IMG/VR virus record: IMGVR_UViG_3300044541_000010
Coordinates: 1-56,911 of that record
Reading direction: 5' to 3' (one strand)
From: a virus
Lineage: Duplodnaviria > Caudoviricetes
Length of the DNA: 56,911 nucleotides
Both the position numbers and the translations under genes were made by a program. The notes beneath the pieces are model-generated. The model saw nothing but the letters and a program-made list of their open reading frames with translations, was not told the origin of the DNA and searched no databases. Each line of letters begins with the position of its first letter. Position 1 is the stretch's first letter. Positions 4,667 to 56,636 of this stretch are shown one piece after another.

Positions 4667-4846
4667 CTAACGCGCAACCGAACGCGCACGACGCACCTTC
4701 CACACCACGAGCAGCGGCAAGGCCACTACGGCTATGCACGTCATCGCCACGGTGACCCAGAACGCGGGCAGGTAGTGGTCGAGCGCCATGCCGATCCACA
4801 GCAGCGCGCACGCCACCAGAACCAGCGGCGGATCTTCGGTCTTCAT
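4667..4846 (-). CDS. Small membrane protein (two TM segments)
   Basis: Translated by hand: MKTEDPPLVLVACALLWIG...VVALPLLVVWKVRR; ATGA overlap with pol stop. Confidence 0.55.
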   Translation of the reverse strand: MKTEDPPLVLVACALLWIGMALDHYLPAFWVTVAMTCIAVVALPLLVVWKVRRARSVAR

Positions 4847-7449: not shown

Positions 7450-7937
7450 GACCCGTACTTCACCACGTCTACGCCAGCCGCGTCGAGTAGAAGGACTGAG
7501 CTGAGGTCCCGGTACGCCCGGTCGTACACCACGCGCACGACACCCGCGTTGATGAGGAGTTGCGCGCACGGCACGCACGGCGACATCGTCACGTACGCCT
7601 CACACCCTTCGACCGAGACACCGTGACGCGCCGCGTACGCCACGGCGTTGGCCTCCGCGTGGACGGCCAGCTTACACCCACCAACCGCCGCACATGTCTG
7701 CTCGTGACCCCACTGCAACATGGCCGGGGGGATGAACCGACTGGTTGTCTTGCTGGCCGTACACCGGCAGGTGTGGTCGCAGTGCGGCATGCCGGCCGGC
7801 GTGCCGTTGTAGCCGGTGGTGAGGATGCGTCCGGCGAGCGACAACACCGCGCCGACGGAACCGCGCGAGCACGTCGACCTCTGGGCCATGATGCCTGCGA
7901 TCTCCATCAGCATCGTGTCTCGACTGATGCGCGTCAC
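7446..7937 (-). CDS. dCMP deaminase
   Basis: RSTC.R..VGAV, TGYNG, HAEANA, SPCVPC motifs. Confidence 0.95.
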   Translation of the reverse strand: MTRISRDTMLMEIAGIMAQRSTCSRGSVGAVLSLAGRILTTGYNGTPAGMPHCDHTCRCTASKTTSRFIPPAMLQWGHEQTCAAVGGCKLAVHAEANAVAYAARHGVSVEGCEAYVTMSPCVPCAQLLINAGVVRVVYDRAYRDLSSVLLLDAAGVDVVKYGS

Positions 7938-8806
7938 GACATGCGCTCCTTGAGCTTGGGCACGTCGGCCACGAACAAGTGGAGAGACGCCACGTGGATC
8001 AGCAGGCGGCCGACCGTCACGTCAGGCGGGCACGTGTTCCCGTTGTGCTCGGCGTGGTCCTCGTCGAAGTCCAGGGCAGTGTAGTGGTTCACCGCGTCGG
8101 CCACCCACCCCATCAGGCGCGAGGCCATATAGATGTCGTTGTTGAGGTGGCGGTACACATCGCATGACCGCAGGTAATACCGGCACGAGAGCTCACCGTT
8201 CCGGATCATAAAGTGGTACCCGAGCGTGCACGGCACGCGGATGGGCTTCCCGTCACGCTCGGCCCCGGTGTCCTCGGGGAACCACACCGGGAGGTATGCC
8301 TGGCGCGTGCCTCGGTCGCGGACGAGCAGGGCGACGACGTCCGACAGGTCCCCGTAGTCGAACCGGATACCGTGATGCGGCGTGTTCTTCCCCGCGTTGT
8401 ACGTCACCGGATACCGGTTGCCCGCGTGACGCGGCCAGAACCGCTCGGGGTAGGTGTGGTCATACTCGGTGCCCGTGGTGTGGTCGGCGTTGCCTCGGAC
8501 CGCGTGCGGCCATCTGGCGGCGCTGGGCGGGGGGTTGTACGGGATACCCGACACGCGCTCATTGAAGTGGTCGGATGCCCACGGGAGGTCAGGCGCCATG
8601 AACATCGGGCCGTCCCACGTTGCGGGATGTGGAACGACGATCGTCATGTCTTCCATCTCATGCATCGCGTGGAGCTTCGACCCGCGCACGTTCATGGCCT
8701 GCCACGTGTCGGTCATAATGGCCGGCGTGAAGATGAGACTATCGATGAGCTGGCCGTAGTTGGTTTCGTTCCACTGCATCTGTGACACACCGTGCCGTAG
8801 CAACAT
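7934..8806 (-). CDS. Thymidylate-synthase-fold enzyme, probably acting on dCMP (hydroxymethylase/methylase-like)
   Basis: TRQAYL, VPCT catalytic Cys, RSCDVYRHLNND with Asp where ThyA has Asn, HVASLHLF. Confidence 0.85.
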   Translation of the reverse strand: MLLRHGVSQMQWNETNYGQLIDSLIFTPAIMTDTWQAMNVRGSKLHAMHEMEDMTIVVPHPATWDGPMFMAPDLPWASDHFNERVSGIPYNPPPSAARWPHAVRGNADHTTGTEYDHTYPERFWPRHAGNRYPVTYNAGKNTPHHGIRFDYGDLSDVVALLVRDRGTRQAYLPVWFPEDTGAERDGKPIRVPCTLGYHFMIRNGELSCRYYLRSCDVYRHLNNDIYMASRLMGWVADAVNHYTALDFDEDHAEHNGNTCPPDVTVGRLLIHVASLHLFVADVPKLKERMS

Positions 8807-9027
8807 CACTCGTCGCCCTTCATGAGCTTGCGTCGGATACACACACTGCGGAGGGTCATCGACGACCGGGCATGAGCCAGCGCGATGCGCGCGAGCGTGG
8901 TCTGGCACCCCTCGTAATCTCCGTCTCGGAGCTGCTGCTCGGCCACCCCCATAGATCGGATGATGGATTCCTTGAACGCGGCGAACTGGACGACCAGATC
9001 TTCATTCGTCTTCGTCGTCGTCGTCAT
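8806..9027 (-). CDS. Small helical hypothetical protein between the two TS paralogues
   Basis: ORF overlapping both neighbours. Confidence 0.55.
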   Translation of the reverse strand: MTTTTKTNEDLVVQFAAFKESIIRSMGVAEQQLRDGDYEGCQTTLARIALAHARSSMTLRSVCIRRKLMKGDE

Positions 9028-10060
9028 CGTCGACCACACCTCCGCCCGAACCGAGGGCCGAGAAGTCCAGCGACGACACCCATGTGGAGGGCAGCGGCGG
9101 GAACGCGCCCTTACCCGTGCCGTTGCGGGTACCGCCCTTGAACTGGTCCGAGTACTTCGACCCGAGGATCTCCACGTGATACCGCCGACGGATGCGCGCG
9201 AAGGATGAGAACGACTCGTCGCCGTACAACGTGCCCGCGTCATCGGACTTCTTGATGCGGGCCAGCCCGTCGAGACACTTGCGGTAACCGAGCTGGTTGC
9301 CGGCCTTGATGCCCGGTGCCCAGTCGAACCGGTTGCCGTACTCGGACAGCAGGTCGGCGTGGATGTCCGGGTCACCGAGAGCCCAGGCCAACGACCGGAA
9401 CCCATGGAACTGCGCCAGGTCGATCGTCCACACGAACCGGATATCTCCGATGGGGATGCCGGTGATCTGCGAAGCCTCGTAGGCGAATGACCGGGCCACG
9501 GCCATGTCCAGGATGGCGAGGTACCCGAAGTACGTGGTGCGGCTGTGCAGGGACACCGTCGGCACGGGGAGCTTGCGGAATGAGAGGTTCAACATGCACG
9601 AACCCCAGCGCCGGCGTACCGATCGACCGACTCCCTTGCCCTGCACCATGCGAGTCTTGAAGTACTCGATGCCGTCCAGGTCGTCGTCTAGCCCGGCGAA
9701 CAGCTCGGCATCGGTGATCTGGTGCTCGCCCGCGCGCAGGATGGCGATGCCCGTGCCTTTGGACTTGGTGCCGTAGTTCGGTCCGGCCATCCGTTCTTCG
9801 ATCTTGTCCAGGCAGTCGTCGAGCCAGACCGGGTCGATGTACTGACGGATCATCATCTTCCAGCGTGACGGCGGAATCCACAACCGCTTGAGGTCGAACT
9901 CGAAGTCGATCGAGTCGCAGAAGATCGACACGTTGTGCAGGCCAAGCTCCGTCCCCCGTGTCCAGTCGTAGTCGCGTCCGGGCGTGTCGCCGTAGACGAG
10001 CTGCTCGCACATGCCATCATGCGCGGCCAGCGGGTTGGCGTATCGGTAGGCGTGGATCAC
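9002..10060 (-). CDS. Divergent second thymidylate-synthase-fold protein
   Basis: WGSCMLNLSF...VSLHSRTTYFGYLAILD aligns with the TS PC..RS.D.......N/D core; adjacent to the first TS. Confidence 0.6.
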   Translation of the reverse strand: MIHAYRYANPLAAHDGMCEQLVYGDTPGRDYDWTRGTELGLHNVSIFCDSIDFEFDLKRLWIPPSRWKMMIRQYIDPVWLDDCLDKIEERMAGPNYGTKSKGTGIAILRAGEHQITDAELFAGLDDDLDGIEYFKTRMVQGKGVGRSVRRRWGSCMLNLSFRKLPVPTVSLHSRTTYFGYLAILDMAVARSFAYEASQITGIPIGDIRFVWTIDLAQFHGFRSLAWALGDPDIHADLLSEYGNRFDWAPGIKAGNQLGYRKCLDGLARIKKSDDAGTLYGDESFSSFARIRRRYHVEILGSKYSDQFKGGTRNGTGKGAFPPLPSTWVSSLDFSALGSGGGVVDDDDDDEDE

Positions 10061-10848
10061 CGGGTGTCCGTCACGCGCTTGTGATCGGCGGACCGGAGGT
10101 GCGCCGAGTGTTCGGCCTGCGTCATGCCGGGTACTCCGCAGTTACCGCACGTCCACAGGCGCAGCTCATCGGTCGCGGGGGGAACGGGAACGGGTGACGG
10201 GACTATCCGCTGTCCATACTGGTCGAGCGGGCACGGCGTATTGGCCTCGGTGTGGCCACGGTGCGGCGTGCCGGGGCAGTCAGACGCGAGCTTGTACCCG
10301 GCGATCGTGCCGTGGCCGTTCACCGGGTCGACGATGGGGTGGGTGTGGCGGTACTTCGCTGATACCTCGCACCACGAGCGAAGCTCGTCAGCCCCCCCGG
10401 GACCGAACGGCTCGGCCGGCGTGCAGTGCACCGCCGCGTCGTCGTAGGCACGGTGGCATTGGGGGCACTTGGTCGTCACGCCGTCGTAGCCGTGGGCGAT
10501 GCGGTCGAAGTTGACCTTCTGCTTGGCGGTGGTCAGCTTGACCAGCTCACCGGGTGTGACGCCGACCAGCAGCATGAGGTTCATGAGGTGCTGCCACGTG
10601 TCGCGCAACTCGGACACGAACGCCTCACGGTTGATGTGTGTGGACGTCGCCCATGACTTCCAGCCCACTTCGGCCAAGGCCTCGTTCACCTCGTTGATGA
10701 GGGCGAGCGCCTGCTCCCGGAGGTACTCCATCATCTGGGGTGTGGTGAAGTCGGCCGGGTCCGTGCCGTCGTGCAGGGCCATCTGCAACTCACGCTGCTG
10801 ACGGAACATCCGGCCGAGACCGGACAGTGTGCGGGTTTCGGTCCTCAT
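10057..10848 (-). CDS. All-alpha dimeric dUTPase/dCTPase (MazG-like) with Cys/His-rich C-terminal extension
   Basis: Q.ELQ, EVNEALAEVGWKSW, ELRDTWQHLMNL, K..VNFDR motifs. Confidence 0.85.
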   Translation of the reverse strand: MRTETRTLSGLGRMFRQQRELQMALHDGTDPADFTTPQMMEYLREQALALINEVNEALAEVGWKSWATSTHINREAFVSELRDTWQHLMNLMLLVGVTPGELVKLTTAKQKVNFDRIAHGYDGVTTKCPQCHRAYDDAAVHCTPAEPFGPGGADELRSWCEVSAKYRHTHPIVDPVNGHGTIAGYKLASDCPGTPHRGHTEANTPCPLDQYGQRIVPSPVPVPPATDELRLWTCGNCGVPGMTQAEHSAHLRSADHKRVTDTR

Positions 10849-11381
10849 CAGCAGGCCACCTTTCGAAGCGTCTCGTACACGGCGCTGAACTTACGGATGG
10901 TGTAGTCGTAGGGGATGACCACGCCGGGCCAGTCCACCATGACACGGAGGTAGTCGTTGTAGATGCGGACCGCGTTGTCGGTCACGCCGGCCATGTGCTC
11001 CCCGGCCATCATGTTGGCGTTGACGACGTGCCACGGCGGAAGACAGACCACCAGTACCGCGTGATCGGTGAGCCGGTCCGTCATCAGACCGCGCCAGCCG
11101 TTGTGCTCGAAGCCCGGGGCGAGCTTGCCACGGCACGCCGGGCCGTAGATGTACTCGCTGACGAGCGGGTGACGGTCGTAGATCCACGGCTTGATCTTGA
11201 AGGCCACCTCCGTCATGTCATCGCGCACGAGTTGCGCCAGGTTGGCGTGCGGTCCGTCGATGCTGTGGCTGAAACGCGGGTGCAGGTCCCACGCCTCAGG
11301 CATCCGCTTCAAGAGCTCATTGATGAACGTGGTCTTACCGGCCCCGTCGGGGCCTTCCACCACGATATGCTTTATGGTCAT
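10848..11381 (-). CDS. dNMP (thymidylate-like) kinase
   Basis: IVVEGPDGAGKTT P-loop; IYDRHPLVSEYIYG. Confidence 0.9.
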   Translation of the reverse strand: MTIKHIVVEGPDGAGKTTFINELLKRMPEAWDLHPRFSHSIDGPHANLAQLVRDDMTEVAFKIKPWIYDRHPLVSEYIYGPACRGKLAPGFEHNGWRGLMTDRLTDHAVLVVCLPPWHVVNANMMAGEHMAGVTDNAVRIYNDYLRVMVDWPGVVIPYDYTIRKFSAVYETLRKVAC

Positions 11382-16703: not shown

Positions 16704-16707
16704 CGAC

Positions 16708-16837
16708 AGTGTCAGCAAAGTGTCAGCAAAGTGTCAGCAAAGTGTCAGTAGGTGCTGAAGAATGGAGCGCCCCGTGAAAGGGAAAAGTGTCAGCGCATGG
16801 GGGTATGTTTTGTTAAAAACACCCCATGCTGACACTT
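16708..16837. repeat. Iteron-like tandem AGTGTCAGCAA x3.7 plus inverted repeat around an AT-rich core; candidate replication origin
   Basis: Copies at 16708, 16719, 16730, 16741; inverted arms AAGTGTCA..GCATGGGG / CCCCATGC TGACACTT at 16785-16837. Confidence 0.8.
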
Positions 16838-16881
16838 CCATTCCCGACCCCGAAACGGTGGGGTTGTGAGGCTGATACTCA

Positions 16882-17118
16882 GTGGGGATGATGAGGGCCA
16901 TGGCGAAGGAAGATGAATGGGAAGACAAGCCGCGTTGTGGCGAGCCGGTTCCGGACGGTGTGTTTGCCGACGGGGTGAACGCGACGTGCAACCGACTGGC
17001 CGGACATGACGAAGACATACACAATGCTCAGCGTCGGGTCAACGGGGTCTATGTAAGAGTGACGTGGTCTGCGAAGGGGAGGGATGATGGAACGCAACTC
17101 GGCGGTTGCGACGTCTGA
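16882..17118 (+). CDS. Hypothetical Cys/His protein
   Basis: C...C.RLAGH...H pattern. Confidence 0.5.
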   Translation: MGMMRAMAKEDEWEDKPRCGEPVPDGVFADGVNATCNRLAGHDEDIHNAQRRVNGVYVRVTWSAKGRDDGTQLGGCDV

Positions 17119-17392
17119 AGCCGGAGTTAGAGGTCCCTGGCTTCGAATGGAAATCTGCCGTCAGTGTTCTCAGCCTACTGGCCTTCCGTGTGTCGGATTG
17201 AAGGGCCAAGTCCGTGCCTCACCTCATCCGGGTCGGGAGTACAAGAGGCCCAAGCCGACAGACGCCGGAGCTGGGCCGCGCTGTCTCGACCGGATGAAGT
17301 TGCGCGGCGGAGTGACGGTGTTCTGCGCGATCGGGTTCGGACACCGGCCTTCGATCAAGCACCAGTCCGGAGACGGGAGGCACACCTGGTGA
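17084..17392 (+). CDS. Small zinc-finger protein
   Basis: CRQC-x6-C...PHPGR. Confidence 0.6.
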   Translation: MMERNSAVATSEAGVRGPWLRMEICRQCSQPTGLPCVGLKGQVRASPHPGREYKRPKPTDAGAGPRCLDRMKLRGGVTVFCAIGFGHRPSIKHQSGDGRHTW

Positions 17393-17802
17393 CGACGCTC
17401 AACCTCACCACGTACAGTCCGAAGGTGATGGCGATCGGTTGCCGGAAGTGTGGTCGACAGCCGGGCGAGAGATGCAAGGGACCGAGCGGACGGGACACGT
17501 CGGCTCATGAGGCGAGGAGGATGGACGTGGAGAACATCGACATCGGTGACTACGTGAACGATCGGAGGCTCGGGTCGGTGGAGCCGAAGTACGCGTCGTT
17601 CCACGGCGAAGGCTGTGACGACGGCGTGCTGGTTCTGCCCCGGGAGGGTGGAGACGGGTTCTTCACCCAGCGCACCTACACCGATCCGGCCGATGGTGAG
17701 ATCAAGCACACGGTGAGCGAGCCGTACCCCACGGCGCCCGGTGCGCTGGAGGCGGCGATCGGTGACGTTCAGTGGACCGCAGAGGCCACTGAGAAAGCGT
17801 GA
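17389..17802 (+). CDS. Zinc-finger protein with the same motif as the upstream gene
   Basis: CRKC-x6-C...AHEARR; GGAGG RBS; GTGA overlap. Confidence 0.6.
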   Translation: MTTLNLTTYSPKVMAIGCRKCGRQPGERCKGPSGRDTSAHEARRMDVENIDIGDYVNDRRLGSVEPKYASFHGEGCDDGVLVLPREGGDGFFTQRTYTDPADGEIKHTVSEPYPTAPGALEAAIGDVQWTAEATEKA

Positions 17803-18003
17803 TGGTTGGTCGTACCCACGATCGGCGGGGTACGCGTCTCTGCGACGAACTGAGTGGCCTCTAAAGACGGTCGTAATTCGTGCCGTCGGTCCGTGATTGA
17901 CGACGGGTCGGATGCGTCAGATAACGCACCGGCCCTTTGTCATGGCACGGCTAGCGTCTGATCCGTACCGTGGTGGACGTTGCCTATCGAAGGAGAGCAC
18001 GAC

Positions 18004-22717: not shown

Positions 22718-23114
22718 TGCGCGAGGTCTTGTTGGCCCCCCGTGCCGTGTACCTCAGCCGCCCGGATGGCATTGCCTGCGGAGTGAGCATCCGGAGCGAA
22801 CGCCGTGCGCGACCGAGCAGGACCAGGGTGACTGCGGGACCTGTGGCCAGTCGTGGCAGTGGCACATGGATGAGCGTCCACGGCACGACTACACACCCCC
22901 AGGCGGCGCTGGAGGCATCAACGTCACGCCACCGCGCACGGACACCCCGCCGACGGCTCGGGTCATCTCAGGGCCGTTCGACCCGGTTCTCCGGCAGGCG
23001 CTCATGGACGCGGGCATCATCACGCCCGAGATGCTACGTGCGGCCGAGGAGAAGATCATGGTCACAACCAACCAGTTCCGAGAGGTGATGCGCGATGACC
23101 ACACCCCTGCCTGA
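22707..23114 (+). CDS. Hypothetical protein (Cys/His N-terminus)
   Basis: Packed ORF; start approximate. Confidence 0.5.
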   Translation: MTSDARGLVGPPCRVPQPPGWHCLRSEHPERTPCATEQDQGDCGTCGQSWQWHMDERPRHDYTPPGGAGGINVTPPRTDTPPTARVISGPFDPVLRQALMDAGIITPEMLRAAEEKIMVTTNQFREVMRDDHTPA

Positions 23115-25144: not shown

Positions 25145-26623
25145 GTGGCGGCCTTCACGCCATACACCACGAGTGCCGGCCTGTTCGTCGGTGTCCGGCC
25201 GTCGTGGATTCCGGACGAGCTAGACCTACAGAGGATCATGTCGTACATCACGTACGAGGAGATCTACTGGAACGTCCCCGACGTGCTGGCCATCAGCCTG
25301 CGCGGGTCGAACGAACTGCCGATCTACGTGCCCAGTGCGATGGCCATCGTAGACGCCATGAACCGCTACACCGCGCCGGGCTTCGCCGTGTCCGTGGCGG
25401 GCACCTCGACGGGCGACGTGGCGCAGATGCAGGCGATGCTGGAGGCGTTCACGCGGCGCGAGCGGTTCGCGTCGAAGTTCAACGGGTCGAAGCGGTACAA
25501 CATCATCCGGGGCGACTGGGTCTGGCACATGACCGCCGACCCGGCCAAGCCCGAGGGATCGCGCATCAGCCTCACGTCGGTAGACCCGGGAATGTACTTC
25601 CCGATCACCGACGACGAGGACGTAGAGAAGATCCTGGGCGTGCACCTGGTCGAGTTCATCAACACCCCCGAGGGGCCGCGCATCCGGCGACTGACCTACC
25701 GGAAGGTGCCTCGGGCCGACGGCACGAACCAGATCACGGTCGAAGACGGAATCTTCCTCACCGACAAGTGGGATGGCCCGACCGACCGGCCGGAGAGGGT
25801 GCTGCTCGCCCCGACGCCGCTGCCCGACGCCATCACGTCCATCCCCGTCTATCACATCAAGAACACCGAGGAGCCCGGTAACCCGTTCGGTTCGTCGAAC
25901 CTGCGCGGCCTTGAGCGGCTGCTCGGCGGCATCAACCAGACCATGAGCGACGAGGACCTGGCGCTGGCGCTCGAAGGCATCGGCATGTACGCGACCGACA
26001 GCAGCCAGCCGATCGACCCGGTAACCAAGGAGTTGGTGCCGTGGCGTCTCGGCCCCGGTCGTGTGGTCCACTACGACGGATCGAAGTGGGACCGCGTCCA
26101 GGGTGTGTCTGGGCTGGGTGACTCGTACGGCGCGCACTACAACCGCCTCTGGGAAGCGTTGAAGCGGTCGGGTTCCACACCGGACATCGCGCTCGGGTCG
26201 GTCGACGTGTCGATCGCTGCCTCCGGCGTGGCGCTGCAGTTGCAGCTCGGGCCGATCATCGCGGCGGCGTCCGAGAAGAACCAGCTCATCCTCGACACCC
26301 ACAATCAGATGTTCTTCGACTGGTCGACGATGTGGCTGCCGGCGTACGAGGACACGACGCTGGAGGGCGTGATCCTGACGTGCGGCGTCGGCTCGGCCAT
26401 CCCCGTGGACCGCGTCCAGCGGTTCGCTGAGCTCAACGACATGTTGGATCGTGGCGTCATCACGCGCGACTTCTACCGGTCCGAGTGCGTCAAGCTCGGC
26501 TACGTGTTCCCGACCGACATCGGTGCCAAGGCCGACGCCGAGCTGGCCGACAAGAACGCTGCTGCCGACCCGTTCGCCGCGCGGCTGAGCACCGAGGCGG
26601 GGACCGGTGGCCAGCCCGCCTGA
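25145..26623 (+). CDS. Portal protein
   Basis: About 490 aa directly after TerL; IPVYHI.N....PFG.S.L, ASGVAL motifs; start approximate. Confidence 0.85.
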   Translation: MAAFTPYTTSAGLFVGVRPSWIPDELDLQRIMSYITYEEIYWNVPDVLAISLRGSNELPIYVPSAMAIVDAMNRYTAPGFAVSVAGTSTGDVAQMQAMLEAFTRRERFASKFNGSKRYNIIRGDWVWHMTADPAKPEGSRISLTSVDPGMYFPITDDEDVEKILGVHLVEFINTPEGPRIRRLTYRKVPRADGTNQITVEDGIFLTDKWDGPTDRPERVLLAPTPLPDAITSIPVYHIKNTEEPGNPFGSSNLRGLERLLGGINQTMSDEDLALALEGIGMYATDSSQPIDPVTKELVPWRLGPGRVVHYDGSKWDRVQGVSGLGDSYGAHYNRLWEALKRSGSTPDIALGSVDVSIAASGVALQLQLGPIIAAASEKNQLILDTHNQMFFDWSTMWLPAYEDTTLEGVILTCGVGSAIPVDRVQRFAELNDMLDRGVITRDFYRSECVKLGYVFPTDIGAKADAELADKNAAADPFAARLSTEAGTGGQPA

Positions 26624-28613
26624 GTTCCTCCCGTTCCGCCGAGTCCAGGCCAAGACCGACGCCGAGACGAAGGCGGCACTGGAGGCAGCCGCCAAGAGTA
26701 TCCGCGCGACGCTGGCTGCGCTTGCACTCAAGCCGCCGGGCATTGGCAACCGGGTGCGCGCCGCTCAGCTGACGCTGGTGCTCGCGTCCATCGCCAAGAC
26801 CATCACGCGGCTGTGGGGTACCGACATCCTCGGTATCACGATGATGGGGTCGAAGGATGCCGCGAAGGCAGCTGAGGAGGCCACCAAGCTCCTGACGTCG
26901 GTCGCGTATGGCGCATTGGACCCCGACGCGGCTGAGGCGCTTACACGCGGTCTGGCGGCCACTGCCGAGGCGGGCATTGAGTCGTTCTTCGCTCGCGTAC
27001 CCAAGACGTTGTCTGAGGCGGTGTACCGCAACAGCAAGGACACGGTCAAGAAGGTCCACGATCTCATCAACGTCGGACTGATCTCGGGGCTGTCGGCCAA
27101 GGAGTTGGCCGCGTCGGTGTACGACCACATCAGCCCGACCACACCGGGCGGGGCCTCGTACGCGGCCATGCGCCTGGCGCGCACCGAGATAAACAACGCC
27201 TTCCACGAGCAGCAGAAGGCGGGTGGGTTCCGACCCGGCGTGCGCGGCGTCAAGTGGAACCTGTCCGAGTCACACCCGCGCAAGGACTTGTGCAACGTCT
27301 ACGCCGACCACCCGAACAAGTTGGGTGTGGGCGTGTACGCGGCGGGTGACGTCCCGGACAAGCCGCATCCGCACTGCTTCTGCTTCCTGACCTACGTCAT
27401 GCTCAGCCAGACGGACTTCGCCACCGCGCTGGCCGCTGGTGCGTTCGACGCCGAGATAGACAAGCGCACGAAAGAGAACCTCGCGCTGCTGGGTGTGTCG
27501 AGCGACGCCGAGACCAAGAAGAAGGTCAAGACGGCCGACGACAAGGAAGCCGCCAAGGAGAAGAAGTGGAAGGGCAAGCCGGCACCGAAGGAGCCGACCA
27601 AGCCGACCGTGCCGCAGGTCGATCGCGCAGCGTTCTATGACGGCTGGCTCTCCAAGGTCAAGGCACGGTACGAGGCGCAGTTCCCCGGCCAGAAGTTGGA
27701 GAACTCCACCAAGTGGTCGTATGTGAAGCGAGTCGTCGAGAAGGGCGACCACGTCACCATCGACTTCCTCAAGAAGGAACAGTACCTCGACGACAAGCTG
27801 GCGCAGGAGGCCAAGGAAATCGGGGGCAAGATCGTACTTGCGGCGGCCAAGGACACGACGTACTCCACTGCGCTGAAGAAGTACGAGGCGAACCTGCGCA
27901 CGTTCAAGCGCAACCACGCCGACTGGAAGGCTGTGAACGGCATCACGGTGCAGCTCACCGGCATGGACGCACCCGCGTTCGATCCGACCACCGTGGACGA
28001 GGGGCTGGTGTGGGCGAAGAAGCACTTCCCTGAGCCGACCGGCAACGAGCGCGCGGCCATCACTGACTACACCAGTTCGTCGTATCGATCGTGGAACAAC
28101 GACCTGCGGACCAACGCCAGCGGACAGAAGCCACCGGCCGGTCATTGGAAGCAGAAGACGACTGACGCTGACGCTGGCATGAAGAAGCTACCGTTCCCTG
28201 AGGATGCAATCGTTCGACGAGGCACCAACTTCGACGAGTTCCTATTCCCGACGGGTGAGCGAGTGTTCAGCGCACCACCGCCCGACCCGTCGAGTCTGAT
28301 CGGTAGCGTCCAGGTGCAACACGGCTACATGAGCACGTCCATCGCACCGGACCCAGCGTTCTCTGGGAACGTTCGACTGGTGTTGCGCGTACCGGCCAGT
28401 CATCACGGCTCGTATGTCGACCCGTTCTCAGTCAACCAGGGTGAGAATGAGATCTTGCTGGAACGATCCACACAGTTCTACATCCATGACGCCTACCAGT
28501 CGAGCTGGGGGCAGTGGGTCATCGAGGCCGAGGTGATTCCGTCTGACACCCCGCCATCGGACTACGCAGGTCTTTCACCCATGCCAAGGACGGTAAAACG
28601 GGTGAAGGCGTGA
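26607..28613 (+). CDS. MuF-like minor head protein fused to a C-terminal VIP2-like ADP-ribosyltransferase
   Basis: RLARTEINNA, W.LS..H...D.C, PHPHCFC (MuF); YT...Y..WN..LR, VRRG, GYMSTS, ENEILL (R-S-ExE ART). Confidence 0.88.
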   Translation: MASPPEFLPFRRVQAKTDAETKAALEAAAKSIRATLAALALKPPGIGNRVRAAQLTLVLASIAKTITRLWGTDILGITMMGSKDAAKAAEEATKLLTSVAYGALDPDAAEALTRGLAATAEAGIESFFARVPKTLSEAVYRNSKDTVKKVHDLINVGLISGLSAKELAASVYDHISPTTPGGASYAAMRLARTEINNAFHEQQKAGGFRPGVRGVKWNLSESHPRKDLCNVYADHPNKLGVGVYAAGDVPDKPHPHCFCFLTYVMLSQTDFATALAAGAFDAEIDKRTKENLALLGVSSDAETKKKVKTADDKEAAKEKKWKGKPAPKEPTKPTVPQVDRAAFYDGWLSKVKARYEAQFPGQKLENSTKWSYVKRVVEKGDHVTIDFLKKEQYLDDKLAQEAKEIGGKIVLAAAKDTTYSTALKKYEANLRTFKRNHADWKAVNGITVQLTGMDAPAFDPTTVDEGLVWAKKHFPEPTGNERAAITDYTSSSYRSWNNDLRTNASGQKPPAGHWKQKTTDADAGMKKLPFPEDAIVRRGTNFDEFLFPTGERVFSAPPPDPSSLIGSVQVQHGYMSTSIAPDPAFSGNVRLVLRVPASHHGSYVDPFSVNQGENEILLERSTQFYIHDAYQSSWGQWVIEAEVIPSDTPPSDYAGLSPMPRTVKRVKA

Positions 28614-35811: not shown

Positions 35812-38502
35812 ATGGCAAACCAGAGCGTCGGCTCCATCCGAGGTACCATCAAGATAGACTACGATGGTAAGGGGATCGTCGAGGCCATCCGCGACACCGA
35901 CGACGCCAAGGGGTCGATGGGGAAGCTGGACAAGGCCGCGAACCTGATCCTGGGCACCTTCGGCAAGTTCGCCAAGGGCGCCTTCAAGGTTGGGGCCGCC
36001 GCTCTGACCATCAGCGGTGGACTCCATACCGTGGCCGGCATCCTCGCCACCATCGGCCCGCTGATCGGTGCGGGGTTGGCCACACTGCCGGCCGTGCTCG
36101 CCACGGTGGCGTCTGCGGTCATCGTCGGCAAGATCGCAGTGATGGGCATGGGGAAAGCCCTCCAAGCGGCGAGCGGTGACGCGAAGGAATTCGACAAGGC
36201 GATAGCCGGACTACCGAAGAATGCGCAGGCGTTCGCGAAGGCGTACCGCGAGAGCTTGCCCGCGCTGAAGTCCGTGCAGTCGGCCATTCAGAACGCGTTC
36301 TTCAAGGGGTTGGCACCCCAACTCACGGCCACCGTGAAGACATTCACGGGATTCAAGCGCGGTGCCTCGGGTGTGGCCACCGCGATGAACATGGTTGTCA
36401 AGCAGGTCTTGCAGTTCGCCCGGTCCCCGATCTTCATCAAGGCCGTAGAGGTCGCGATGGACAACGTCCGGACGATCCTCCGAGGCATCGCGCCGCTGAT
36501 CGGTCCGCTGCTCAAGTCGTTCGCTGGCCTCGCCGCGCAGGGCAACACGATCGGGGCGAACCTCGTAGGCCCGTTGCGCAACGGGTTGACTACCATCACC
36601 AAGTTCGTCAACGGCGTCGACCTCGCGAAGGTGTTCGCGAAGGCCGGCCCGATCATCAGCGCCATCAGCACGACGTTCTCCACCATCGGCGGCATCATCG
36701 GCCCGATCTTCTCGACGCTGACCAACGGCGGACAGAACGCGGCGGGCATCCTCGGGACGATGGCCAAGCAGTTGGCCGACTTCCTCGCGTCGGCACAAGG
36801 CAAGGAGGCGCTCGACGCGCTGGGCAAGGCATTCGAGGCTATCAGCACCGGGGCCGGTCAGGTGTTCCTGGCGCTGCTCCAGGCGGCTGGCCCGATCCTG
36901 ATCGCGCTGGCGCCCGGCATCACCGCGCTGGCCACACAGATCAGTGCCGCACTCGTCCCGGCTATTCAGACGGTGGCTCCGATCCTCCAGGACGTCGCCA
37001 AGTGGTTGTCTGAGAACGTGTCGTGGCTCGGGCCGTTCGCTCTCGGGGTCGGTGTGGTGGCCGTAGCGATCAAGGGCTACATCGCCGTGCAGACGGTGTG
37101 GAACAACGCGCAGAAGCTCGCCACGAAGCTCAAGCTCAAGGACGCTGCCGCGTGGACGTTGCTCAAGCTTCAGCTCTTACTGACTCGTGCGCAGCTCGTC
37201 GCGTTCACGTTGTACCAGAAGGGCGCGGCGGCTGGCGCGTGGGTGCTGAGCACGGCCAAGATCTTGGCGAATCGCGCGGCCGTGCTCGCGGTGTGGCTCG
37301 CCCAGAAGGCGCAGTTGATCCCCGGTCTCATCGCGTCGACAGCGGCCGTGGTGAAGAACACCGCCGTGACTGCGTTGAACGCGGCCATGAGGGCCGGTGC
37401 GTTCCTGGCCTCGTGGGTGGTCACCACCGGAGCAATGATCGCGCAGAAGATCGCGATGCTCGCCACGATCGTAGTCATGAACGCCATCAAGGTGGCGACG
37501 CTCGCGTGGACCGCCGTCCAATGGCTGCTCAACGCGGCGCTCGATGCCAACCCCATCGGGATCATCATCATCTTGATCGCGGCCCTCATCGTCGGCATCA
37601 TCATGCTGTGGAAGCACAGCGAGACGTTCCGCAAGATCGTGATGGCGGTGTGGAACGGCATCAAGTTCGTCGTGATGGCCGTCGTGAACTGGATCAAGGA
37701 CACGGCGGTGCCGTGGCTGAAGGCCGCATGGAAGGCCATCTCCGACGCCGCGACGTTCATGTGGAACCTGGCGCGAGCCGCGTTTAACACCGGCCTGGCC
37801 GTGGTGAAGAAGGTCATCGCCTTCATCGTCAACATCATTAAGACAGACATCGCCGTCATCATGGCTGTGTGGGATCGCATCAAGCAGATCCCCACGATCC
37901 TGCACAACGCGTTCACGCTCGCCTACAACAAGGTGAAGTCGATCGCCAGCACGATCGTCGCCTACGTCAAGGGGTTGCCGGGTAAGCTGATCTCGGCACT
38001 GGGCAATCTCGGGTCGCTGCTCTACAACAAGGGCAAGGACTTGCTCCAGGGCTTCCTCGACGGAATCAAGTCGGTGATCGGCAAGATTGAGGACACGATC
38101 AAGGGCGTGGTCGGGAAGATCACCGACTTCCTCCCCGGCTCGCCGGCCAAGAAGGGACCGTTGTCCGGCCACGGCTACGTGCTGCTCCGAGGCCAGCGGT
38201 TCATCACCGACTTCGCCAAGGGCATGGACAACGCCGGCAAGCGGCCCGTACGGGCCGTGAGGAGCATCGTGTCACCGGTTGCGCAAGCGGTACCGTCCAC
38301 TGCCTCTGCGACCGTCTCAGGGGCCTCTACGCGTGCTGCTGCGTCGACCTCGCACGGGCCGTACGCGTTCATCCTTGACGGCAAGGTGTTCGCTAAGTTC
38401 GTCATCGACACGGTGACGGGCGAGCCGCAGGTTATCTCCGACACGAACTCCGAGGGATCGCGCCTGGTCGCGTGGGCCGGATCGGGAAGGAACGGATCAT
38501 GA
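35812..38502 (+). CDS. Tape measure protein
   Basis: Long Ala/Ile-rich helical protein; AAL.ANPIG, SETFR, W-periodic repeats, PGSPAK.GPL. Confidence 0.92.
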   Translation: MANQSVGSIRGTIKIDYDGKGIVEAIRDTDDAKGSMGKLDKAANLILGTFGKFAKGAFKVGAAALTISGGLHTVAGILATIGPLIGAGLATLPAVLATVASAVIVGKIAVMGMGKALQAASGDAKEFDKAIAGLPKNAQAFAKAYRESLPALKSVQSAIQNAFFKGLAPQLTATVKTFTGFKRGASGVATAMNMVVKQVLQFARSPIFIKAVEVAMDNVRTILRGIAPLIGPLLKSFAGLAAQGNTIGANLVGPLRNGLTTITKFVNGVDLAKVFAKAGPIISAISTTFSTIGGIIGPIFSTLTNGGQNAAGILGTMAKQLADFLASAQGKEALDALGKAFEAISTGAGQVFLALLQAAGPILIALAPGITALATQISAALVPAIQTVAPILQDVAKWLSENVSWLGPFALGVGVVAVAIKGYIAVQTVWNNAQKLATKLKLKDAAAWTLLKLQLLLTRAQLVAFTLYQKGAAAGAWVLSTAKILANRAAVLAVWLAQKAQLIPGLIASTAAVVKNTAVTALNAAMRAGAFLASWVVTTGAMIAQKIAMLATIVVMNAIKVATLAWTAVQWLLNAALDANPIGIIIILIAALIVGIIMLWKHSETFRKIVMAVWNGIKFVVMAVVNWIKDTAVPWLKAAWKAISDAATFMWNLARAAFNTGLAVVKKVIAFIVNIIKTDIAVIMAVWDRIKQIPTILHNAFTLAYNKVKSIASTIVAYVKGLPGKLISALGNLGSLLYNKGKDLLQGFLDGIKSVIGKIEDTIKGVVGKITDFLPGSPAKKGPLSGHGYVLLRGQRFITDFAKGMDNAGKRPVRAVRSIVSPVAQAVPSTASATVSGASTRAAASTSHGPYAFILDGKVFAKFVIDTVTGEPQVISDTNSEGSRLVAWAGSGRNGS

Positions 38503-39419
38503 GGGGTTACCGCACCGACGCCCCGGTGTACTTCGGATTGCCGGGACAGCTCGTCAGTATGCCGAGTCCACGCGGCGGCATGGCCGCGCCAGTGGACCGT
38601 GAGGTGTTCGACTTCGAGTCAGGCTCGGGTGGTCACCGGATCTCCACGCTGTTGGGCACATCACGCTCGTACTCCCTCACGTGGGCGGCACTGCATCAGT
38701 CCACGTTCGACAAGATCAATGCGTACTGGGTCGGCGCGATGGGTCCGGGGCCGTTCTGCATCATCGACCCGTCGCGACCCAACCTGCTCACCGTGAACCA
38801 GGCCGCCGCGACTGCGCAGTGGAACGACGCGACTGACTTCACGCTCGGCGGGGTGAACCACGGCGCCCTGTCGAGCAACAAGACGACCACACTCATCCAC
38901 CGGACCAACGGCGTGCGATCGTTGCGGTGGCTGTTCTCCGGGTCGCTCGCCGCGACGTGCACCGTGAGCATGTCGTCGCCTTACGCGTTGTGGCCCGGTA
39001 TCCCCGTGCTCCCGTCGGTGTCGTACACGTTCGCCTTCTGGTGCAAGCCTGACGGCGTGGTGGACAGCAACATCACCACAGGCGCGACGATCACCTGGTA
39101 CGACGTGACCGGGGCCGTCATCAGCACGAGCACCCTCACGGCTGCGGCGGTGACCACGTGGACTCAGCTAGTACTGACGGCCACTGCGCCGAGCACAGCG
39201 GCCTACGGGTTGCCGGCCCTCACGGTGACGTCGTCCACGGTCACGTCAGGCGGTTCGCTGTACGTGGACGAGCTGGTGTTTGAGCAGGACTCGGTCGCCA
39301 ACGAATGGGCTCCCGGGACTGGTGTCTACCCGGTCGGCATGACCAACTGGACCGAGGCCGTACCGTTCGATGCGTTGTTCCGGGTGTCCCCGGTACTGTC
39401 CCTGAGGGAGGTCAAGTGA
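38499..39419 (+). CDS. Minor tail protein (Dit-like, with CBM-like insertion)
   Basis: Follows TMP; YTFAFWCK...LYVD jelly-roll pattern. Confidence 0.7.
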   Translation: MRGYRTDAPVYFGLPGQLVSMPSPRGGMAAPVDREVFDFESGSGGHRISTLLGTSRSYSLTWAALHQSTFDKINAYWVGAMGPGPFCIIDPSRPNLLTVNQAAATAQWNDATDFTLGGVNHGALSSNKTTTLIHRTNGVRSLRWLFSGSLAATCTVSMSSPYALWPGIPVLPSVSYTFAFWCKPDGVVDSNITTGATITWYDVTGAVISTSTLTAAAVTTWTQLVLTATAPSTAAYGLPALTVTSSTVTSGGSLYVDELVFEQDSVANEWAPGTGVYPVGMTNWTEAVPFDALFRVSPVLSLREVK

Positions 39420-45494: not shown

Positions 45495-46055
45495 ATGCCC
45501 AAGGCCACCAAGACCAAGACCGCCGCGCCGGTCGACGAGATCGAGGAGCTGGACGACGCCTTCGAGGAGCTGGACGAGACGCCGGCCCCGACCCAGAAGA
45601 AGTCCGCCAAGAACGCTGCCGCGAAGCCGGCCCCCAAGGCCGTCGACGAGGACGCGGAGGACGTCGTCAAGTTCGACACGGGCTGGCTCGCGACGATGGT
45701 CACCGAGGCGACCGGCGAGGCGGTCGACGGTCGCGGCGTCCGGATGCTGCTGCGCAAGATGGTGTCCGACGGCGAGCTGGCTCGCGAGGTCGGCACGGAC
45801 CGCACGCGGTACCACTTCCCGAAGGGCCTCAACGACCCGACCGTCAAGAAGGTCATCGCCCGCGTCAAGGGCGGTGCGCTGAAGGCCGCGAAGGCCGAGG
45901 GCCTGGCCCGCGCGACCGGCGGCAAGAAGAAGCCGGTGGCCGACGCGCCGCTCCCCGAGGAGCTGGCCGCGCCGAAGACCAAGACCAAGGCGAAGGCCCC
46001 GACCGAGACGCCGGTCAAGGCGCAGCCGTCCACGCGGACGCGTAGCAAGAAGTAG
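45495..46055 (+). CDS. Lys/Ala-rich DNA-binding protein with central wHTH-like core
   Basis: FDTGWLA...DGRGVRMLLRK...RTRYHF; histone-like tails. Confidence 0.65.
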   Translation: MPKATKTKTAAPVDEIEELDDAFEELDETPAPTQKKSAKNAAAKPAPKAVDEDAEDVVKFDTGWLATMVTEATGEAVDGRGVRMLLRKMVSDGELAREVGTDRTRYHFPKGLNDPTVKKVIARVKGGALKAAKAEGLARATGGKKKPVADAPLPEELAAPKTKTKAKAPTETPVKAQPSTRTRSKK

Positions 46056-46182
46056 TACGTCGGGGAAGTGCGCTAGGTCGAGGTGTCGGGGTCGGTCAGT
46101 CTTCCCCCCGCCGACCCCTTCGTCCGAGAGGTCACCGTTAAGGGCGCACCAGCCGGGAGGCGGTTAGCTCCGGCACACAAGG

Positions 46183-46268
46183 TTGGATGACGTAACGTAG
46201 GGCGTAGACGATCAGCCGGGGTAAGCGGGAGCGGTCATCGTCTGGGGGTTCGACCCCCTCCATCCACA
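46183..46268 (+). ncRNA. tRNA-like structure, non-canonical
   Basis: TTGGATG/CATCCAC acceptor, GGGGG-TTCGACC-CCCTC T-arm, AGACGAT/ATCGTCT stem. Confidence 0.5.
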
Positions 46269-46310
46269 CGCGAGGTCTTCCGGTCGAGCGACCGGCGGAG
46301 GAAGAAGGTA

Positions 46311-46760
46311 ATGCCGATGTTCAAGCGTATCGTGCTGGTGCTCGCCCTCATGGTGGGTATCGGCATCGGGTCTCCGGTCGCGGCGGCCGAGATCCCGCCC
46401 GGCACCCAGTCGTGCCACTTCACGGCGTTTGACGGACTGGGCTGGGAGACCCACAACGGGACGACCTGGACGTTCTCCCAGGACTTCGTGAAGCCGGCCC
46501 CGGGGTGTTTCGATGTTCAGGTGAACCACGCCATCTGGCCGAACCTGTGCGGTGGCTCGTACCCGACGCAGATGGTCGTGCAGGTCGAGACCCGGAACTC
46601 CTCGGGGGGCCACATGGCGTGGGGGTCGCTGCTCACCGTCCATGAAGACGTGGCGGCCTACGTGATCCTGTGGCACAACATGCCGACCGGCCAGCACTAT
46701 CGGATCTGGTCGTCGGTCGGGAGTACGTGCTTCACGCAACGCGGAGACATCATGCACTGA
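46311..46760 (+). CDS. Secreted protein with signal peptide
   Basis: MFKRIVLVLALMVGIGIGSPVAAA; four Cys. Confidence 0.7.
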   Translation: MPMFKRIVLVLALMVGIGIGSPVAAAEIPPGTQSCHFTAFDGLGWETHNGTTWTFSQDFVKPAPGCFDVQVNHAIWPNLCGGSYPTQMVVQVETRNSSGGHMAWGSLLTVHEDVAAYVILWHNMPTGQHYRIWSSVGSTCFTQRGDIMH

Positions 46761-46770
46761 CGCACGGGGG

Positions 46771-46823
46771 GACGGAGCGGTGTGGACGTGGACACCCGAC
46801 GGGTTCGATTCCTGGCTCCGTCA
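46771..46823 (+). ncRNA. 53-nt mini tRNA-like structure lacking an anticodon arm
   Basis: GACGGAG/CTCCGTC acceptor plus discriminator A, GGTGT/ACACC hairpin, CGGG-TTCGATT-CCTG T-arm. Confidence 0.5.
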
Positions 46824-46843
46824 CGCGAGATACCATCGCACGC

Positions 46844-47236
46844 ATGACCGGTATTCGGATGGCCGGGCTGCTGCTGCTCCTGAAGATCAGCCGCCAGCTC
46901 GACCGGATGGAACGACGAGAGGAACTCAGCTTCATGAAGATCCAGGATGTGCTCGACCGCGCCGGGGTGTCCCTCCACCACCTGGAGGACACGGACCGCG
47001 AGCTGCTCGCGGAGATGGCGGCGATCCAGGAGGCCGGCGGCACGCTGACCCCCGACCAGGAGGCCCTCGCGAACGACGCGCTGGCCCGGATCGCGTCGCT
47101 GGACGCGGCCGACCGCGCGGCGATCGACGCCGCGAAGGCGGGCACCACGCCGGCCACGGGCGACGAGCCCGGTACCCCGGACGAGACGCCGACCACCGAC
47201 GGCTCGGACGGCACGGCGGAGACGAACGGGTTCTGA
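46844..47236 (+). CDS. Hypothetical coiled-coil protein
   Basis: ORF with strong codon bias; start uncertain. Confidence 0.6.
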   Translation: MTGIRMAGLLLLLKISRQLDRMERREELSFMKIQDVLDRAGVSLHHLEDTDRELLAEMAAIQEAGGTLTPDQEALANDALARIASLDAADRAAIDAAKAGTTPATGDEPGTPDETPTTDGSDGTAETNGF

Positions 47237-47260: not shown

Positions 47261-47302
47261 GAAGCACCCCCCGGCAACCTGCGACACGCCGGGGGGTGCT
47301 TC
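47261..47302 (+). terminator. Intrinsic terminator hairpin
   Basis: Perfect 15-bp stem GAAGCACCCCCCGGC/GCCGGGGGGTGCTTC. Confidence 0.85.
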
Positions 47303-47307
47303 ATGTG

Positions 47308-47336
47308 TTGACACGTGTTATCTCACGACGTACACT
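47308..47336 (+). promoter_or_regulatory. Housekeeping-sigma promoter
   Basis: TTGACA-N17-TACACT. Confidence 0.8.
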
Positions 47337-55769: not shown

Positions 55770-56636
55770 ATGCACGTTGACGTCAAGGGAACGCGGTTCA
55801 AGGTCACCACAGGGGACGGTCAGTCGTTGACCGTGGCCGGACCGCTCGGAATCGAGGAGCTCACCACACCTCGCCTGATCGTGGGGTCCGACCGGTACCC
55901 GATCGACACGAAGGTCTACCCGAAGCTGGGCGGAACGCGGGTGTACTCGCAGACCGGTCCGCCGAGCCTGACCGGTGTGCCGGCCGAGGCGATGCCCATC
56001 TGCTCGTGGAAGGAGCGGCCGACCAACGCGGCCAAGTTCAACGCCTGGGCGTACGGCCGTCCGCGCAAGCTGACCACGCTGCACGAGATGGACCGCGACC
56101 CGACCAAGGGCGGACCGACGCCAGCCGCGTGGATCGAGGAGGACGCGCAGACCGAGGCGCTGATCGTCGCGCACTCCAACGCGGCGAACCTCCAGCAGAT
56201 CGACATCTTCACCGGGTTCGTGTCCCGGCACAAGCCGGCTCGGTCGTGGGACAACTTCTACCGGAAGTCCACCGTGGCCGGTCGCGTCAAGGCGCTCGGG
56301 TTCGACCTGGAGGTGGACCACACCGCATGGCCGAAGGGATACCCGCCGGCCGACAAGTTCCAGGAGGTGGCGCTGTACGCCTTCCGTGACTCGGGTGTCG
56401 GCGAGGGCTGGTTCACCGAGTACGGCTGGCCGTGGGACGAGGCCAACGACCCGGACATGAGCCACCTGCGCGCGTTCTATCAGGACTCGTTCGACTACGC
56501 CGCTGAGCAGACCATCGCGCGTGTGCTCGGCATTTTCGCGTACGACTACGCGGGGGGCTCGACAGGAGACTACCTGATGCGAGGCGACGTCCTCGTGGAC
56601 CACCAGAAGCGGACGGCCGCGCAGTTCGTCGGCTGA
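55770..56636 (+). CDS. Putative clan GH-A (GH26-like) glycoside hydrolase
   Basis: LTTLHEMD (acid/base-like) and WFTEYGW (nucleophile-like); GGAGG RBS. Confidence 0.5.
   Translation: MHVDVKGTRFKVTTGDGQSLTVAGPLGIEELTTPRLIVGSDRYPIDTKVYPKLGGTRVYSQTGPPSLTGVPAEAMPICSWKERPTNAAKFNAWAYGRPRKLTTLHEMDRDPTKGGPTPAAWIEEDAQTEALIVAHSNAANLQQIDIFTGFVSRHKPARSWDNFYRKSTVAGRVKALGFDLEVDHTAWPKGYPPADKFQEVALYAFRDSGVGEGWFTEYGWPWDEANDPDMSHLRAFYQDSFDYAAEQTIARVLGIFAYDYAGGSTGDYLMRGDVLVDHQKRTAAQFVG

Follow-up and report, generated by a model that had tools for sequence, protein, structure and literature searches.

What are two structures resembling transfer RNA (tRNA) doing in the spacers between protein-coding genes of a phage in which no tRNA gene is called? 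The question is raised by IMG/VR record IMGVR_UViG_3300044541_000010 (Duplodnaviria; Caudoviricetes), a whole virus genome of 56,911 bp which ends in direct terminal repeats, has a completeness rating of 100% and was analysed here over its full length (hereafter "the window"). A preliminary description had reported two non-canonical tRNA-like RNAs flanking a gene for a putatively secreted protein (here ORF149) and had proposed that they are processing signals or decoys. We call them element A (46181/46183..46268, + strand, 86–88 nt) and element B (46771..46823, + strand, 53 nt). Our tentative answer, to which we give a probability of about 40%, is that A and B are structurally selected mimics of the top half of a tRNA, excised from the RNA of an operon by the tRNA-processing enzymes of the host. 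By top half we mean an acceptor helix stacked on a T arm, together with a GG-loop hairpin that would be able to form the elbow.

Anatomy of the two modules

Element A was recognised from its sequence, its fold, the Rfam tRNA model RF00005 and a structural descriptor. In the register of the preliminary description its acceptor strands (46183–46189 and 46261–46267) form six of seven pairs, with a U1.C72 mismatch, and are followed by the discriminator A46268. Directly after the 5′ acceptor strand stands a D-like hairpin, ACGT-AACGTAGG-GCGT, with 4 bp and an 8-nt GG loop. The middle arm (38 nt) is closed by AGACGAT/ATCGTCT and abuts the GGGGG-TTCGA T arm, the stem of which has five of five pairs. 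The place of the anticodon arm is thus taken by a hairpin of 33–38 nt, consisting of a 7-bp plus a 4-bp stem and a 13-nt loop instead of a 5-bp stem and a 7-nt loop. The unconstrained fold of A is a four-way junction with zero linker nucleotides.

When RF00005 was run alone on the genome, A scored 21.8 bits (E = 0.00125), under the 29-bit cut-off, and aligned to the entire model (positions 1–71). Because this covariance-model alignment (46181–46266) is shifted two bases upstream of the register described above, A has two competing acceptor registers. Read in the register of the model, A has U8; its acceptor holds a U3.U70 mismatch, its anticodon arm an insertion of 29 nt, its variable region measures 4 nt and its T loop 5 nt.

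Element B was recognised from its sequence, the descriptor and a weak match to the model of selenocysteine tRNA (17.1 bits, E = 2.5), which aligned it as acceptor, variable arm and T arm; it gave no match to RF00005 at E ≤ 10. Its acceptor is a perfect 7 bp (46771–46777/46816–46822), or 8 bp if C46778–G46815 is counted, and encloses one hairpin with a GG loop, a 2–3-nt linker and a T arm with the exact GGTTCGATTCC; the discriminator is again A. The T stem has four of five pairs (with an A.G mismatch) and there is no anticodon arm. Weaker alternative 5′ strands for B are found at 46740 and 46763.

The features claimed in the preliminary description for A (1:72 mismatch, D-like hairpin, AGACGAT/ATCGTCT arm, TTCGA T arm and discriminator A) and for B (7-bp acceptor, GG-loop hairpin, T arm and no anticodon arm) could all be read in the sequence, as could the CGCGAG which lies directly 3′ of both elements. 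The latter is part of an 8-nt direct repeat, CACGCGAG, with a first copy at the 3′ end of A (46267..46274, + strand) and a second at the 3′ end of B (46822..46829, + strand). The genome holds 8 copies against 7.5 expected, and only the identical place after both acceptor ends is notable; an origin of the repeat as a target-site duplication was rejected on this chance frequency. Three further ideas were dropped. The 5′ strand of A fails to pair with the 3′ strand of B, as a single tRNA split by ORF149 would need; the order of the parts does not suit a two-piece or permuted transfer-messenger RNA (tmRNA), and no model matched; and the insert in A is far too short for a group I intron, which speaks against an intron-bearing tRNA.

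Detection and comparison with chance

As had been predicted in the preliminary description, no canonical call was obtained: ARAGORN at default settings found 0 tRNA or tmRNA genes in the window, and Rfam at gathering thresholds gave 0 matches across the whole window. At E ≤ 10, with filters on, the whole-window Rfam search returned seven weak and unrelated matches, none of them at A or B. At 80% thresholds ARAGORN called A, an extended B and three other places in the same 1.1 kb, and at 60–80% it called A, B and the related element C (described below), plus many places in coding sequence. Given the three extra calls, the 80% setting is non-discriminating.

We describe the modules by a full descriptor: the acceptor must form at least six of seven pairs, the loop of the T arm must read TTCRANN, and a hairpin of 4 bp with a GG loop must lie at most 2 nt from the acceptor. 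On both strands of the 57-kb window it matched exactly A and B. Dinucleotide shuffles gave a mean of 0.31 matches, with two hits in 9 out of 400, a figure which takes no account of the 500-nt distance between A and B, of their common strand or of the location of both in spacers. A loose descriptor without the hairpin term (an acceptor with at least six of seven pairs next to a TTCRANN T arm) gave 6 distinct matches, where 200 dinucleotide shuffles averaged 1.4 and reached 6 at most. The other four lie in coding sequence (22908–22995, 39311–39384, 55974–56055 and 5775–5838), and the loose descriptor alone proves little. Taken by the letters of the window, A and B look real and more than chance.

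Position within a probable operon

Three tightly spaced genes on the + strand surround the modules: a gene for a 186-aa protein (45495..46055), ORF149 (46311..46760) and a gene for a 130-aa protein (46846..47236). A and B are intergenic and in sense orientation. As the genes share a strand and are followed by a terminal stem-loop and then by a promoter-like site, A and B occupy the two internal spacers of a probable single operon. The stem-loop (47261..47302, + strand, 15 bp) has a fold energy of −48.1 kcal/mol (z = −6.2; 0 of 200 shuffles as stable) and is probably the terminator that ends the operon; it carries no T run and was therefore missed by a simple terminator scan. The sigma-70-type promoter-like site beyond it (47308..47336, + strand; TTGACA-17 nt-TACACT, matching at 10 of 12 positions) may belong to the next transcription unit.

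Between the first gene and A lies a non-coding leader of 123 nt (46056..46178, + strand), in which the hairpins noted ahead of A in the preliminary description are seen in sequence and fold: a long one at 46078–46124 and a second at about 46149–46175. The fold energy of the leader is not unusual (z = 0.03) and it has no Rfam match; it may have a role of its own, as a regulatory RNA or as a region bound by protein. A further hairpin (46276..46299, + strand; −16.5 kcal/mol, z = −0.26, not unusual), found by folding, stands between A and the ribosome-binding site of ORF149, a purine-rich Shine-Dalgarno stretch at about 46297–46308.

A sister phage with a single module

A metagenome scan for the locus yielded at least two loci, and eight relatives of the 186-aa protein were found (42–81% identity). 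The most informative of these is on a sister contig of 1,275 bp (L003, 78% protein identity), which matches the window in the upstream gene (83%), the leader (90%) and, with a conserved start, the downstream gene (77%); the 22 nt leading up to that start are 86% identical. The leader is more conserved than the genes on either side, and its long hairpin has one compensatory pair (G-C in the window, A-T in L003). Between these conserved flanks, L003 has one tRNA-like element, element C (L003 736–809), and no ORF149. Because the flanks are kept while one element and ORF149 are absent, ORF149 plus one module appears, from the two sequences compared, to be an insertion or deletion between sister phages. 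This indel was not part of the preliminary description.

Element C is 60% identical to A and 62% identical to B. In its fold, the acceptor has six of seven pairs (with an A3.C70 mismatch), followed by a 4-bp hairpin with the loop GGA, a closed helix of 29 nt and a 6-bp T arm; neither ARAGORN at default settings nor Rfam calls it. C is like A in its central helix, and like B in its acceptor, T loop and 3′ flank. Alignment z-scores for C against A and C against B are 3.8 and 4.1, and 1.8 for A against B. The shape is thus kept despite change: at about 60% identity between the elements, compared with 86–90% in their flanks, different letters make up, in each of A, B and C, six to seven acceptor pairs, a GG-loop hairpin of 4 bp and a T stem that is intact.

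Two soil runs that belong to separate studies (X3 and X4) also have contigs over B, and these differ from it only at 46797–46799, in linker letters. With C in place of A at 46799, the T-stem A.G mismatch becomes a C-G pair, giving five of five pairs. The preliminary claim of non-canonical tRNA-like modules is strengthened by the recurrence of the design in L003 and the retention of B in these two soil runs. On covariation, which the preliminary description had proposed as a check, the sequences offer a change at pair 2:71 (A-U in B, G-C in C) and, apart from that, the T-stem repair; on the other side are the A3.C70 mismatch in C and a number of sequences so small that covariation has almost no power.

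Other searches gave no relatives of the locus. The locus had no match in 50,697 phage records by megablast or blastn, and tblastn with the 186-aa protein gave no match. Viral-contig scans with ORF149, a 292-aa protein and the endolysin returned no relative; the exact 3′ halves of A and B had no match in viral contigs; and short-query blastn with A, B, C and a known phage element (that of DS6A, see below) gave only chance-level or T-arm matches. Contigs of four small-share runs gave no cover over 46070–46270. A 20-nt motif of the leader, used against genome contigs, matched one Prevotella metagenome-assembled genome, at about the chance expectation, and was dropped.

Comparison with known tRNA-like RNAs

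With canonical tRNAs the modules share the 7-bp acceptor, the discriminator, the TTCGA T loop and a D-like stem with a GG loop. An acceptor on a TTCRANN T arm followed by a discriminator is found in both A (six of seven pairs) and B (seven of seven). They differ from tRNAs at the anticodon arm, where A has its 33–38-nt hairpin and B has nothing.

The preliminary description had compared the modules to the tRNA-like domain (TLD) of tmRNA. Among known RNAs, the nearest counterpart is the tag-less tmRNA of mycobacteriophage DS6A, which is listed as "Mycobacterium phage DS6A (TLD only)" in an excerpt of PMC4131195. We located this element in JN698994 (28478–28557, 80 nt). It has the four-way plan of A and C, with an acceptor, a small GG hairpin, a T arm and, where a tRNA would have its anticodon arm, a closed helix; the T arm carries TTCGATT, A73 is present and no CCA is encoded. 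It is likewise tRNA-sized, from an actinophage, and missed by ARAGORN and by Rfam at gathering thresholds. The DS6A element is intergenic, just after the late and lysis genes; in contrast, the window has two elements within an operon, between coding genes, of which B has no central helix.

The analogy with the TLD is apt, but membership of the family was not supported. The tmRNA model RF00023 found nothing in the window at E ≤ 10, while run alone on positive controls it gave 43.2 bits for DS6A, 57.6 bits for L012 and 41.2 bits for L018, the latter two being elements on viral contigs. The mitochondrial tmRNA model RF02544 gave no match in the window either. DS6A has G1-C72, G2-C71 and G3.U70, and of the nine elements we tabulated, G3.U70 is found in five (DS6A, L012, L018, L006 and L010) and is absent from A, B, C and L009. 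At position 3:70, A has G-C in the register of the preliminary description or U.U in that of the model, B has C-G and C has A.C; A73 is present in all three. In an excerpt of PMC9976931 the bacterial alanine set is given as A73, G2-C71, G3.U70 and G4-C69, and the 3:70 mispairs C-C, C-U and G-A are said there to have kept activity in E. coli; the U.U of A and the A.C of C lie outside those named in the excerpt. A closed helix like P2 with no tag reading frame is found in A and C and not in B, and this architecture is not family-specific. Because RF00023 does not match and G3.U70 is absent, tmRNA membership fails; A, B and C are members neither of the TLD-only tmRNAs nor of the tRNA family, and at most work like a TLD-only RNA. 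These failed membership tests add to the first description of the locus.

Other comparisons are looser. RNAC and RNAD of phage T4 (species 1 and 2) are tRNA-like and are processed along with tRNAs. Together with similar stable RNAs of T5, they are phage-encoded, non-decoding and small, like the modules described here, but they lie in tRNA clusters of large coliphages, whereas here there is no tRNA gene and the elements punctuate protein-coding genes. An excerpt of PMC9697503 gives the functions of RNAC and RNAD as not known. The preliminary description had also named the YrlA or bacterial Y RNAs, tRNA mimics with an acceptor-like stem, a T arm and a D arm. This comparison was not upheld: RF02553 (YrlA) had no match in the window, no Ro/Rsr-like protein was found among 36 proteins compared to PHROGs or 43 compared to Pfam, and the topology of A and B is not permuted. 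In mitochondrial tRNA punctuation, in mascRNA and at RNase P sites in bacterial operons, tRNA-shaped modules stand between messages; these are analogies of mechanism (recognition by RNase P and RNase Z) and not sequence families.

Viral contigs were scanned with a pattern that B and C share in their 3′ halves, and 14 contigs matched; in 3 of them the match lay inside a tRNA or tmRNA gene called by ARAGORN and in 11 outside. The 11 uncalled contigs represent 8 distinct sequences (L007, L014 and L016 were omitted as duplicates), and Rfam at gathering thresholds names two of the eight: L019 as tRNA (33 bits) and L012 as tmRNA, the latter a 78-nt match to the whole RF00023 model (57.6 bits) which consists of the TLD only. 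A MAFFT alignment of the TLD-like elements was too poor in the variable middle for a covariance model.

Several of these contigs carry features of their own. The L012 element (5949–6026, − strand; identical in L016), a 78-nt tag-less tmRNA over the RF00023 cut-off, has G3.U70 and an encoded CCA and adjoins a tRNA-Pro gene on a provirus contig. A similar tag-less element in L018 (7014–7092, 41.2 bits) lies about 1 kb from a Pistol ribozyme match (6052–6115, − strand; 71 bits against a cut-off of 34.5). In L010, a viral contig of 148 kb with 25 tRNA genes and a tmRNA gene (26 ARAGORN calls), a 61-nt element made of an acceptor and a T arm (8604–8664; identical in L007 and L014) sits between the full tmRNA gene and tRNA-Val in the phage tRNA array, and the model of class A bacterial RNase P RNA is matched in full at 3489–3836 (124 bits). 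L006, L008, L009 and L017 hold further tRNA-sized or larger elements with acceptor and T arm; like that of L010, these are named by neither ARAGORN nor Rfam. DS6A (L020) has in addition a partial tRNA 3′ end with CCA in the gp50–gp51 spacer (36363–36449, − strand), about 2 kb from the integrase gene, which is probably the core of the phage attachment site.

The phage and its neighbouring genes

The source of the window is an uncultured soil actinophage with 65% G+C. Scans with PHROGs and Pfam identify its gene set as that of a siphovirus of Actinobacteria and of lytic type, including terminase, portal, a MuF-like head protein, capsid, tape measure and an endolysin with holin, as well as a family A DNA polymerase, a helicase and several nucleotide-metabolism enzymes. 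The capsid protein has at most 46% identity to any isolate (162 matching isolate records), the matching isolates being Arthrobacter, Microbacterium, Gordonia and Mycobacterium phages. No integrase or recombinase was found among the 36 proteins compared to PHROGs or the 43 compared to Pfam.

The proteins of the operon are poorly represented in databases. The first, of 186 aa, has an acidic N-terminus and a tail rich in Lys, Ala and Pro; it matches PHROG 16498 (no assigned function) at 2.5e−11 and has no Pfam family, and the G+C content at third codon positions (GC3) of its gene is 0.97. ORF149 (GC3 0.90) encodes a small protein with an N-terminal segment like a signal peptide and four cysteines. 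It is an orphan: a search of 5.8 billion proteins yielded a single homologue (67% identity), it falls in no family of Pfam or PHROGs, and its AlphaFold2 model is unusable (mean predicted local distance difference test score 40.5). The last, of 130 aa, belongs to no known family in PHROGs or Pfam.

Elsewhere in the window, about 1.28 kb (16704–17979), running from a primase/helicase-like gene to the next clear gene, lacks any open reading frame with the usual codon-position G+C pattern. The MuF-like minor head protein (26607–28613, 668 aa) matches in its C-terminal residues 461–648 a PHROG annotated as ADP-ribosyltransferase exoenzyme toxin (E = 1e−22), so that this stretch resembles an enzyme domain packaged in the head. 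The family A DNA polymerase (4843–7578, − strand) has an N-terminal domain of the uracil-DNA-glycosylase superfamily, and dCMP deaminase, thymidylate-synthase-like, dUTPase-like and kinase-like genes are its neighbours (7446–11381); such a combination may point to changed nucleotide pools or to DNA modification.

Proposed processing of the modules and alternative explanations

RNase P, RNase Z and the CCA-adding enzyme recognise a minihelix of acceptor and T arm with an elbow. Under the reading that we prefer, selection would have kept this shape in modules unable to decode. The operon would be transcribed as one RNA, from the 186-aa gene through the leader, A, ORF149, B and the 130-aa gene to the terminator. 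Cuts by the host RNase P would fall 5′ of each module, trimming at the discriminator would be the work of RNase Z or of exonucleases, and CCA would be added post-transcriptionally since none is encoded. These cuts would separate three messages ("tRNA punctuation") and free stable RNAs of about 86 and 53 nt. The sequences themselves show the anatomy, the placement of the modules, the return of the design in relatives, the repaired stem in the variant of B and the indel; it is transcription, processing and an effect on gene expression that we infer here. The locus would in addition be a recombination hot spot: in the sister phage there is only one module and ORF149 is missing, so that ORF149 and a module were gained or lost together as a cassette.

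A number of observations weigh against this reading. The modules are the least conserved part of the locus (60%), which also fits relaxed constraint or recombinational replacement, and the covariation comes from one sister and two near-identical contigs, with almost no statistical power. The fold energy of A is ordinary (z = −1.0; 31 of 200 shuffles as stable) and that of B is not unusual (z = −2.1; 8 of 200). Both modules stay under the curated Rfam thresholds, where B hardly rises above noise. The relatives L002 and L004 (42–46% identity) have no such element. A promoter scan found no consensus promoter before A, and readthrough of the 46078–46124 hairpin is an assumption that the proposed transcript would have to make. 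Lastly, 0 of the 8 sequencing runs which hold words of the locus are recorded as RNA.

The same facts can be read as decay. A and B might be inert relics, functionless copies of former phage tRNA or mini-tmRNA genes which recombination has shuffled and in which helices survive only because the decay is recent. A would fit as a sub-threshold tRNA (21.8 against 29 bits) whose anticodon arm has 29 extra nt and whose T loop, in the register of the model, has only 5 nt, and B as a tRNA whose anticodon arm was deleted; the mismatches in the acceptors of A (U1.C72 or U3.U70) and C (A3.C70), the identity of 60% in the elements against 86–90% in the flanks, the relatives at 42–46% identity without the element and the lack of a working tRNA gene in the phage all point the same way. 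However, drift to about 60% identity should break acceptors, T stems and GG hairpins, and all are kept in A, B and C; the X3/X4 variant of B repairs a T-stem mismatch and breaks nothing; and A and B stand exactly in intercistronic spacers, in sense orientation. We consider decay possible, if doubtful. Integration offers another kind of remnant, also raised in the preliminary description: attachment-site or recombination scars made of the 3′-end pieces of host tRNA or tmRNA genes. Such 3′ ends are common integration sites, DS6A has its partial tRNA 3′ end near an integrase, and the indel hot spot is flanked by the 8-nt direct repeat; yet that 8-mer is at chance frequency, the phage combines direct terminal repeats and a lytic-type gene set with no integrase or recombinase among the 36 (PHROGs) and 43 (Pfam) proteins scanned, and each element has a matching 5′ acceptor strand which the core of an attachment site does not need. 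We regard scars of this kind as very improbable. Chance resemblance in GC-rich, hairpin-rich intergenic DNA seems just as remote. The loose descriptor does match four coding places, fold z-scores are ordinary, B has no significant Rfam score and CACGCGAG is not rare, but A reaches E = 0.00125 with the tRNA model, the full descriptor matches only A and B (two in 9 of 400 shuffles), B has the exact GGTTCGATTCC, and a third element, C, stands at the same locus in L003.

A role in trans is compatible with processing of the modules. A and B could be decoys for a host factor that reads the top half of tRNAs, such as SmpB or a defence toxin that modifies or cuts acceptor ends. A and C share the four-way architecture of the TLD-only RNA of DS6A, a form that inhibited endogenous tmRNA in E. 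coli according to an excerpt of PMC11915505, and two unlike modules could widen the range of targets. Against this, the tmRNA model finds nothing at E ≤ 10 although it scores DS6A, L012 and L018, B is without the helix that SmpB-bound TLDs carry, and A, B and C are without G3.U70. The last point would be no bar to a decoy role, because a similar TLD molecule strongly inhibited tmRNA whether chargeable or not, perhaps by titration of SmpB (an excerpt of PMC4131195, citing Mao et al. 2009). Overall we think decoys unlikely. More speculative still is that the lytic actinophage has a dual-purpose, non-chargeable pair, which would act in cis as sites at which RNase P and RNase Z cut the message, in trans as sponges of about 53 and 86 nt for a reader of the acceptor end or elbow (SmpB or an acceptor-end-modifying defence toxin), and as recombination joints that swap cargo genes like ORF149.

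Significance

Non-decoding look-alikes of tRNAs are already known from phages, in RNAC and RNAD of T4 and in the tag-less tmRNA of DS6A. What the locus appears to add, on the present sequences, is a pair of unlike modules which punctuate protein-coding genes, have no alanine identity and belong to a phage without a tRNA cluster, together with a natural one-module form that has no cargo gene. Phages carry many small, non-decoding, tRNA-shaped genes, which standard annotation misses and whose roles are almost unknown, and the two-module form with a cargo gene and the one-module form without it provide a natural comparison. Should the modules be relics, the locus illustrates the decay of such genes and their use as joints in recombination. 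If they are processed, they would represent tRNA punctuation of a phage operon, and would offer a simple system for studying the action of a tRNA top half on its own during infection of an actinobacterium.

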